IMG/VR virus record: IMGVR_UViG_2681813236_000006
Length of the DNA stretch: 9,520 nt
From: a virus
Lineage: Duplodnaviria; Heunggongvirae; Uroviricota; Caudoviricetes
Direction: 5' to 3' (one strand)
Positions 1,970-2,598 of the stretch are shown here, one piece after another (positions within the stretch are counted from its first letter, which is position 1; every line of letters begins with the position of its first letter). The translations under genes were made by a program, and so were the position numbers. Under the pieces are notes generated by a model. It saw only the letters and a program-made list of their open reading frames with translations. It made no database searches and was not told the origin of the DNA.

Positions 1970-2269
1970 TTATAAGAAATCGGTTTCATAACTTTGCCCA
2001 CCATGATAGATACCGACAATAAAGACTTTTCTGCTATCAACGGCAAAAGCAATAATCGTTCTGTGGCGGAAATGAGTTACCCGCATCCCCTGGCGAATAT
2101 CATCGCGTTTATTGCCCCGATGCGGGAATGTAGAAAACCCATCAAGATAATCAAGAAGCGCATTGGCATAATTGTCAGCAATGACGTTCCCTGCTTTCTC
2201 CGTTATATACCTGTGCAGGTTGATTATTTGTTGTTCGGCCTCAGGAGTAATGATGACTTCATATGTCAT
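1970..2269 (-). CDS. Type II toxin, RelE/ParE superfamily (ParE-like)
   Basis: 99-aa protein with ParE-like features by recalled family knowledge (MTYEVIITPEAEQQI…VFIVGIYHGGQ). Sits 5 nt downstream of the antitoxin stop; GGGAAG lies 8 nt before the ATG. Confidence 0.8.
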   Translation of the reverse strand: MTYEVIITPEAEQQIINLHRYITEKAGNVIADNYANALLDYLDGFSTFPHRGNKRDDIRQGMRVTHFRHRTIIAFAVDSRKVFIVGIYHGGQSYETDFL

Positions 2270-2274
2270 GCAGA

Positions 2275-2532
2275 TTACTTCCCGGATCGAATCGCGGCGC
2301 GAACCTGTGAAATGGAGCGTCCGTTGTTTGGGGTTTCGCGGATAGAATCAAGAGAGGGGGCGGCTGAATGCGTTAACCACGCTTCGATTGCTTTATCGCG
2401 CTCATTCAGTGCGCGAAGCCCTTCACGAATGACCTCGCTTTCTGAAGCATAGGCACCGGAAGCCACACGGGCGCGCACCATGTCAGCCATTTCGTTAGTT
2501 AATGTAATGCTGAATTGTTGGGTTGTACGCAT
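2275..2532 (-). CDS. Type II antitoxin, ParD-like (ribbon-helix-helix family)
   Basis: 85-aa protein starting MRTTQQFSITLTNEMADMVRARV…, typical of ParD/RHH antitoxins. Start chosen at ATG 2532 (weak GAGG upstream); the ORF-track start at 2595 would add 21 residues with no Shine-Dalgarno. Confidence 0.75.
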   Translation of the reverse strand: MRTTQQFSITLTNEMADMVRARVASGAYASESEVIREGLRALNERDKAIEAWLTHSAAPSLDSIRETPNNGRSISQVRAAIRSGK

Positions 2533-2567
2533 GGTAAACCTCACGGAGTAGGATAGAACACCATTCG

Positions 2568-2598
2568 ATGATAGCACGTTGCCTGTTGACGACAACAG
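2568..2598 (-). promoter_or_regulatory. Putative TA-operon promoter and operator: -10 TATCAT (complement of 2568-2573), -35-like TTGTCG inside the imperfect palindrome CTGTTG-ACGA-CAACAG (2583-2598)
   Basis: Hexamers and palindrome seen in sequence. RHH antitoxins are established to autoregulate through inverted-repeat operators overlapping the promoter. The assignment itself is inference. Confidence 0.35.

Follow-up and report, generated by a model that had tools for sequence, protein, structure and literature searches.

Introduction

What is a toxin-antitoxin gene pair doing on the opposite strand to the phage genes that flank it? The question is raised by a stretch of phage DNA of 9,520 nucleotides (Caudoviricetes; IMG/VR record IMGVR_UViG_2681813236_000006), here called the window. 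An earlier note, made from the sequence alone, had described in it an operon of the ParD/ParE type with a palindromic operator, placed in what looked like a slot for exchangeable addiction modules, and had considered coupling to the lytic switch or a part in phage defence. In the present study the two gene products, the limits of the element, its site and the region upstream of its first gene were analysed computationally. Our reading, to which we assign a probability of roughly 85%, is that positions 1847-2617 are a self-contained moron: a type II parDE operon carried as cargo in a hotspot of the nin-equivalent region of a lambda-like Escherichia coli prophage.

The parDE gene pair

A prophage of E. 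coli A35 matches the window at 99.9% identity, and its two proteins bear the RefSeq names "ParD family antitoxin" (WP_040072796.1) and "RelE/ParE family toxin" (WP_000220601.1). As identical proteins are named in RefSeq, the pair is already annotated. PHROGs likewise lists the families as "antitoxin" (phrog_6494) and "toxin" (phrog_5232), both in its moron category, and the record of Stx2a phage ArgO145, which also carries parDE, calls the genes toxin and antitoxin. An experimental paper on this specific pair was not found in a literature search. Among 5426 complete E. coli genomes, 328 (about 6%) carry the parDE region, counted where at least 80% of an 801-bp region was covered.

The gene order of A35 places the pair. 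Genes for a LexA-family repressor, Cro/CI, YdaT, a replication-type helix-turn-helix protein, DUF1627, DUF977 and several small genes come first; next in order are an HNH endonuclease, a protein of 114 amino acids, parE and parD in reverse orientation, a protein of 92 amino acids, DUF968, RusA and Q. Based on this order, parDE lies between the replication genes and DUF968-RusA-Q, that is, in the nin-equivalent region. The flanking phage genes are on the plus strand and parDE is on the minus strand, converging on the upstream genes and diverging from the downstream ones; the opposite-strand placement described earlier was thus borne out.

The antitoxin gene comes first. parD (2275-2532, minus strand) encodes an antitoxin of 85 amino acids with an N-terminal ribbon-helix-helix domain, and parE (1970-2269, minus strand) a ParE-type toxin of 99 amino acids, predicted to be a gyrase poison. 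According to the list of open reading frames (ORFs) the genes are separated by 5 nt, and a promoter and terminator scan revealed no promoter-like or terminator-like site between them. Adjacent, closely spaced, on one strand and behind one predicted promoter, the two genes have the organisation of a type II operon.

The ORF list extends the parD reading frame to a TTG at 2595 (2275-2595, 106 amino acids). This start was ruled out by RefSeq and by the aligned starts of homologues in Yersinia, Enterobacter, Erwinia and Salmonella, all of which correspond to the ATG at 2532, with a GAGG ribosome-binding site 6 nt upstream of it (2539-2542). The TTG was also rejected because the region 5' of 2532 carries 4-nt indels, which are not multiples of three, in other genera. 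Compared with the O111 and ECL27977 alleles, the ratio of non-synonymous to synonymous substitution rates (dN/dS) was 0.09-0.17 for parE and 0.11-0.16 for parD. Purifying selection acts on both genes.

ParD exceeded the curated thresholds of two family models, with its N-terminal ribbon-helix-helix domain included: it scored 53.8 bits against TIGR02606 (NCBIfam "type II toxin-antitoxin system ParD family antitoxin"; cut-off 46.2) and 32.1 bits against PF03693 (ParD_antitoxin; cut-off 21), the latter over residues 6-51. Its matches in the PDB were all ParD antitoxins (3kxe, 7ycv, 7b22, 8c24, and 5ceg). The best solved relative is Caulobacter ParD1 (3kxe), with an alignment limited to residues 6-51, the ribbon-helix-helix part.

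ParE scored 40.4 bits against the Pfam model PF05016 (ParE_toxin; cut-off 23), residues 5-94 covering the full model, while a search of the NCBIfam models gave no match for ParE. PF05016 also takes in RelE-type RNases, and the subtype was therefore tested separately. As the single sequence gave one weak match in the PDB (E = 0.011), an alignment profile was needed; it was built from 20 homologues that are 49-92% identical. At E <= 1 this profile matched ParE toxins alone (6x0a, 5ceg, 7ycs, and 8c24), and no RelE-type mRNA interferase. An AlphaFold model generated from the same alignment (pLDDT 83.1, pTM 0.75) contains the elements E4-7, H9-26, H28-46, E61-67, E71-78, and E81-89, in the order beta-alpha-alpha-beta3. 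In a Foldseek search of the PDB with this model, ranks 1-23 were all ParE-type chains with TM scores of 0.61-0.73, namely Mesorhizobium ParE3, PfiT, PrpT, P. aeruginosa ParE, M. tuberculosis ParE1 and ParE2, V. cholerae ParE2, O157 ParE2 (of PaaA2-ParE2), and Caulobacter ParE1.

These searches bear on the possibility that the toxin is a ribosome-dependent mRNA interferase of the RelE type and not a gyrase poison. The generic RefSeq name, "RelE/ParE family", would allow it, as would the breadth of PF05016, which spans RelE proteins too. In the fold search, however, YoeB, HigB, YafQ, and RelE ranked below every ParE-type match, at E > 0.01 and with much lower TM scores (<= 0.55); the profile search pointed the same way, and the antitoxin paired with this toxin is of the ParD type, TIGR02606 (CC2985) family. 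We regard a RelE-type activity as highly improbable. Judged by profile and predicted fold, the toxin is ParE-like, not RelE-like, and the earlier identification of an antitoxin-then-toxin pair of ParD/ParE type II stands, since the family cut-offs are exceeded as well.

Limits of the cassette, predicted promoter and terminator

The limits of the cassette were taken from a comparison with E. coli KMi006, which matches the window over 1366-1846 with 98.8% identity and over 2618-4347 with 93.5% identity, and has a 483-bp hokD cassette in place of window positions 1847-2617. Since the KMi006 flanks match up to 1846 and again from 2618, the parDE cassette comprises 771 bp, with a mosaic junction on each side. 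The right junction, 2617/2618, is common to all sampled hokD-type prophages, in every one of which hokD abuts it. A left boundary at 1762, suggested by O111 and ECL27977, was corrected to 1846/1847, because about 1370 genomes contain the stretch 1762-1846, a small ORF, whether or not they have parDE.

A promoter scan predicted the E. coli parD promoter inside the right junction, on the minus strand: a -35 element TTGTCG (2595-2590), a 16-nt spacer, and an extended -10 element TGcTATCAT (TGCTATCAT, 2568-2576) that ends at 2568. The pattern TGCTAnnnT occurs 43-47 nt upstream of the parD start codon in all 11 loci compared.

At the other end of the operon, an intrinsic terminator hairpin acting in both directions is predicted at 1856-1889 (AAAGATCCCG, a 14-nt loop, CGGGATCTTT). 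The stem has 10 bp, is GC-centred, and lies about 80 nt beyond the parE stop codon. On the minus strand the hairpin is followed by UUUUUUCGG, the predicted end of the parDE transcript, and on the plus strand by GAUUUAUAU; the hairpin may therefore also terminate the incoming phage transcript. Folded as minus-strand RNA it gave z = -2.99, with none of 200 shuffles folding as well, and it is kept in ArgO145, O111, and ECL27977. A terminator scan of 1750-3000 found nothing, its loop limit of 8 nt being the reason why this hairpin was missed.

A moron is classically a gene unit with its own promoter and its own terminator, located between otherwise contiguous genes (PMC3594210). The parDE cassette corresponds to this description in its predicted promoter and terminator, in the hokD cassette that occupies identical flanks in KMi006, and in the PHROGs category "moron".

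A further promoter-like site (TTTACC-16-TGnTAGAAT) was seen at 1939-1966 on the minus strand, just beyond the parE stop codon, followed by a hairpin TCCGCC...GGCGGA (1909-1932) and then by the terminator hairpin. A small RNA of about 80 nt might arise from this site, or the region could simply be structure of the 3' untranslated region. A search of Rfam gave no match, whether for the whole window at gathering thresholds or for 1700-2750 at E <= 1.

The cargo slot

The suggestion that the site is a slot into which different addiction modules are swapped is supported. Besides the hokD cassette of KMi006, inserted in the same flanks with identical junctions, several other occupants were found: hok with a NirD/YgiW-family gene, hok with rem, and a hok remnant with two other genes. 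hokD together with the same right flank (both covered at least 80%) is present in 2647 of the 5426 genomes, against 328 for parDE, which makes hokD about eight times commoner. In E. coli OkiPb01713 (locus L013, 368-2378), a cytosine methyltransferase gene and an NgoMIV-family endonuclease gene lie immediately upstream of hypothetical-DUF968-RusA-Q, so that restriction-modification genes, too, have a place in the hotspot alongside toxin-antitoxin modules.

The earlier note had stated that the Qin prophage of E. coli K-12 carries relBE and hokD at the equivalent position. The gene order there is relB-relE-hokD-rem-ydfU(DUF968)-ydfT(Q), with homology to the window beginning at 2651, so that the comparison is correct as to position. 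It does not extend to the convergent orientation: relBE and hokD are co-directional with ydfU and ydfT. According to a published analysis, relBE was inserted into hokD in Qin (PMC6379469).

The three modules are alike in being of the addiction type, each with its own terminator, and in occupying the same site upstream of hypothetical-DUF968(ydfU)-RusA-Q. They differ in kind: hokD (hok/sok-type, type I) encodes a membrane peptide and relBE an mRNA interferase, both co-directional with the phage genes, whereas parDE is antisense to them. Taken together, these sequence comparisons support a site that exchanges different modules, which is the best-supported part of the earlier note's interpretation.

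The region upstream of parD

The palindrome CTGTTG-acga-CAACAG, for which the role of ParD operator had been proposed, is indeed present at 2583-2598. As a palindrome it does not exceed chance expectation. When the 88-nt upstream region is shuffled, 10% of the shuffles contain a perfect 6+6 inverted repeat (loop of at most 8 nt), 39 such repeats occur in the whole window, and 21 inverted repeats of at least 6 nt were listed in 861 nt.

Symmetric binding of a ParD dimer to this palindrome would be in keeping with its overlap with the predicted E. coli -35 element of the parD promoter, a frequent binding place of ribbon-helix-helix repressors. In ArgO145 and the Stx2a phages conservation stops at the outer edge of the palindrome, and its core TGTTGTCGTCAACA does not vary among six loci from E. 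coli and phages, one of them from a lineage that is 14% diverged. This invariance says little, however, because conservation over the entire stretch 2533-2597 is about 93% in E. coli and its phages.

A comparison across genera was more informative than this, with nine loci aligned (eight of them enterobacterial) and third codon positions of parD only 36-40% identical. The left arm differs (Yersinia, TTATCG; Enterobacter, CTGCTG; Erwinia, CCA-TG), with matches at 2-4 of the 6 positions, and the right arm shows no compensating change. Only the core GTCGTCAA (2586-2593) is conserved between genera, being invariant in seven of the eight enterobacterial loci. The same three genera have a 4-nt insertion between the GTCGTCAA block and the -10 element, which moves the palindrome relative to the latter; the block therefore cannot be the parD -35 element in those genera. 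Moreover, on the opposite strand GTCGTCAA reads TTGACGAC, the -35 region of a conserved predicted promoter that faces outward (see below). The characterised operator of V. cholerae ParD2, for comparison, is not a single palindrome: it has three 4-bp motifs spread across 33 bp, and one dimer binds to each motif (PMC10776004). The palindrome as the ParD operator thus appears unlikely to us: the repeat itself exists, at chance level, and its symmetry is not kept across genera.

The most conserved non-coding block lies elsewhere, between the -10 element and the start codon. It spans 2539-2565 on the minus strand (AATGGTGTTCTATCCTACTCCGTGAGG), from about +1 to the GAGG at 2539-2542, and is nearly invariant in the eight enterobacterial loci, with the consensus AAT(A/G)GTGTTC(A/T)ATCCTACTC(A/C)GTGAGG. 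Its conservation is stronger than that of the block at 2586-2593. This pattern makes 2539-2565 the best candidate for an operator or an element of the 5' untranslated region, and at least as good a candidate as the palindrome. An operator is more likely to reside in the blocks 2539-2565 and 2586-2593 than in the 16-bp palindrome as such. The palindrome would then largely be a by-product of promoter elements placed back to back, and ParD may well bind the region.

Repeated operator motifs at helical spacing were also looked for by eye in 2533-2620. Motifs such as GTnnTCAA (2586-2593 and 2554-2561) were rejected, as the spacing shifts between genera, and for this reason no claim is made on such sub-sites.

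A predicted outward promoter and the orphan parD of Stx2a phages

The promoter scan also returned a promoter-like element on the plus strand at 2586-2615, composed of TTGACG (2586-2591), an 18-nt spacer, and AATATT (2610-2615). It points away from parD, toward the ORF of 92 amino acids, DUF968, RusA, and Q. The opposite strand of the conserved core reads TTGACGAC and holds the TTGACG hexamer.

Nine of the 11 loci, belonging to four genera, contain the arrangement TTGACG-17..19-(T/A)ATATT; in ArgO145 (L002) it lies at about 5680-5720. Conserved hexamers are combined with spacers of varying sequence, which we take as the signature of a real promoter pointing away from parD. Six loci outside the nin region have the -10 hexamer TATATT, five of them with an antirepressor gene downstream; in the three nin-located E. 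coli cassettes it is AATATT, and in the window the junction follows 2 nt beyond. The antirepressor gene (ORF6N or P22_AR_N) lies about 240 nt away in ArgO145, the Stx2a phages, Y. enterocolitica, Erwinia, and one Salmonella locus (L027). The immI region of phage P22, with Mnt and the promoter Pant, has a similar arrangement.

In the Stx2a phages (L003; L005, 3694-4277) an orphan parD is found together with its promoter. Homologous to window positions 2256-2615 with 86% DNA identity, it shares the first 48 residues with the window's ParD, the codons showing 8 synonymous and 0 non-synonymous changes. The C-terminal part, predicted to bind the toxin, has diverged (dN 0.22). After about 14 nt, parE is replaced by a lipoprotein-like ORF of 90 amino acids, which is followed by a HigA-family gene. 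Unlike parD of the window, the orphan gene adjoins antirepressor and integrase genes and does not lie in the nin region. The role of the orphan ParD and HigA in Stx2a phages has been called unclear (PMC12502783). The ParE family of the window would be the obvious cognate toxin of this orphan ParD.

These loci suggest a different account of the upstream region. The palindrome core would be the -35 element of the outward promoter (TTGACG, 17-19 nt, TATATT), and ParD would be the repressor of this promoter, as Mnt is at Pant, so that the ancestral task of the module would include the gating of an adjacent antirepressor gene; in the window the antirepressor gene would have been lost, leaving a weakened promoter that faces the block ending in Q. 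Consistent with this are the conserved hexamers with variable spacers across four genera, the antirepressor gene downstream in the five groups of loci named above, and the retention of parD without parE in the Stx2a phages, with synonymous changes alone in its 48 N-terminal codons. The antirepressor of the Stx phage Phi24B, furthermore, promotes induction and is weakly expressed in lysogens (PMC3064807). On the other hand, spacers of 18-19 nt are suboptimal, the -10 hexamer of the window is AATATT with no antirepressor gene behind it, the conservation of TTGACG could equally mark a ParD binding site, and the association with antirepressor genes may stem from a single ancestral arrangement. On balance we hold this account to be doubtful. 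That ParD would act as an Mnt-like repressor in addition to its role as antitoxin, so that the ParE:ParD balance would gate prophage induction, is distinctly improbable on the present comparisons. If true, it would explain why an orphan parD is kept beside an antirepressor gene in Stx2a phages.

Neighbouring genes and homologous loci

Two flanking ORFs outside the cassette border the slot. To the right, a hypothetical gene for 92 amino acids (2668-2946, plus strand; phrog_1212) precedes DUF968-RusA-Q, and its 5' region (2618-2700) is present in 2214 genomes. To the left, an unannotated hydrophobic ORF of 27 amino acids (1762-1845, plus strand) has an ATG that overlaps the upstream stop codon (ATGA) and marks the left edge of the slot. 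It occurs in about 1370 E. coli genomes, behind varied upstream genes and with or without parDE, and its variants comprise an in-frame 6-nt deletion and mostly synonymous changes. This pattern suggests a real gene for a small membrane peptide.

Window positions 130-2615 match ArgO145 (L002, 2188-5716) with 95-99% identity, from a 357-nt gene via DUF4014, HNH, and the gene for 114 amino acids to parDE. In ArgO145 this block occupies an early-left position near the integrase gene, outside the nin region, so that a large mosaic segment must have moved between two regulatory arms of lambda-like phages.

Prophages or islands of Salmonella, Yersinia, Erwinia, and Enterobacter carry homologues of parDE as cargo, with parD always upstream of parE. 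One Salmonella prophage (L025, 1513-4026) carries VapB-VapC (PIN), ParD-ParE, Fic with a small partner gene, and Hok in a row. In Y. mollaretii (L028) the parDE homologue lies within a tail-gene cluster, beside a second ParD fragment and a YafO toxin.

Proposed mode of action

The mode of action that we propose is modelled on the parDE systems of RK2, Caulobacter, and V. cholerae (PMC10776004). In a lysogen, parDE would be transcribed from its own promoter, against a silent early-right operon. Repression of this promoter would come from ParD dimers, either by themselves or with ParE as a bridge, acting through the ribbon-helix-helix domain, and the C-terminus of ParD would neutralise ParE. These roles of ParD have indirect support in the divergence of its C-terminal half where parE is lost, against an identical N-terminal half, and in the conserved non-coding blocks of the promoter region. 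Once ParD synthesis stops, ParD would be degraded and ParE would poison DNA gyrase. Cells that lose the prophage would thus be penalised, and growth of an infected cell could be halted.

Several points weigh against this picture and against the moron reading that underlies it. Promoter and terminator are sequence predictions. Toxicity, rescue, gyrase targeting, lability of ParD, and autoregulation are assigned by homology, and identity to the nearest solved ParE reaches only 24%. Weak or atypical activity is also known from some toxins of the ParE family. Finally, PADLOC-DB 2.0 returned no match for ParD or ParE at E <= 0.01, and a catalogued defence role is therefore not supported.

The last result also counts against the view that the main role of the pair lies in the lytic switch or in defence. 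Antiterminated early-right transcription, antisense to parDE, would lower ParD and so free ParE in the one case, and an infecting phage would trigger ParE abortively in the other. It can be said for this view that parDE is antisense to the flanking phage operon not only here, but also in ArgO145, Salmonella (L027), and Erwinia (L022), and that an early-right transcript reaching Q must cross the cassette. PfiT/PfiA, a structurally similar toxin-antitoxin pair, sits in the Pf4 prophage and affects phage production. The argument is nevertheless purely positional, and the terminator-like hairpin on the plus strand (1856-1889) may stop read-through. Furthermore, hokD and relBE are co-directional in the same slot, so that the slot itself does not dictate an antisense orientation. 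A main role in lytic switching or defence is thus rather unlikely, and the self-contained parDE moron remains the reading that we prefer.

Relation to known systems and significance

In its layout, the pair resembles RK2 ParDE, Caulobacter ParDE1 (3kxe), Mesorhizobium ParDE3 (5ceg, 6x0a), V. cholerae ParDE2 (7r5a), and M. tuberculosis ParDE1 (8c24): a two-gene operon with the antitoxin first, a ParD with an N-terminal ribbon-helix-helix domain, and a toxin of the ParE fold, the family models and the best structural matches all being ParDE. In contrast to these systems, it is phage-borne cargo in a slot of the nin region and is known here from sequence. Identity with solved members is low, at 13-24% for the toxin, and ParD aligns at residues 6-51 only.

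PaaR2-PaaA2-ParE2 of the O157:H7 prophage CP-933P (5cw7, 5czf) provides another toxin of the ParE fold on a lambda-like E. coli prophage, with a TM score of about 0.70. That system differs from the two-gene ParD operon of the window in having three components, with the non-ParD antitoxin PaaA2 and the separate regulator PaaR2.

The element is a real, intact, and conserved ParDE cassette, and an ordinary one. As a toxin-antitoxin pair it adds little, given that RefSeq names identical proteins and PHROGs lists both families. Its site is of wider use: one precisely bounded position, between the ORF of 27 amino acids and DUF968-RusA-Q, takes hokD, relBE, parDE, and restriction-modification cargo interchangeably, and thus offers a practical natural setting in which to ask how a prophage is served by such cargo. 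The recurrent pairing of parD with an antirepressor gene, in turn, offers a testable idea for the orphan ParD of the Stx2a phages, which control the release of Shiga toxin.

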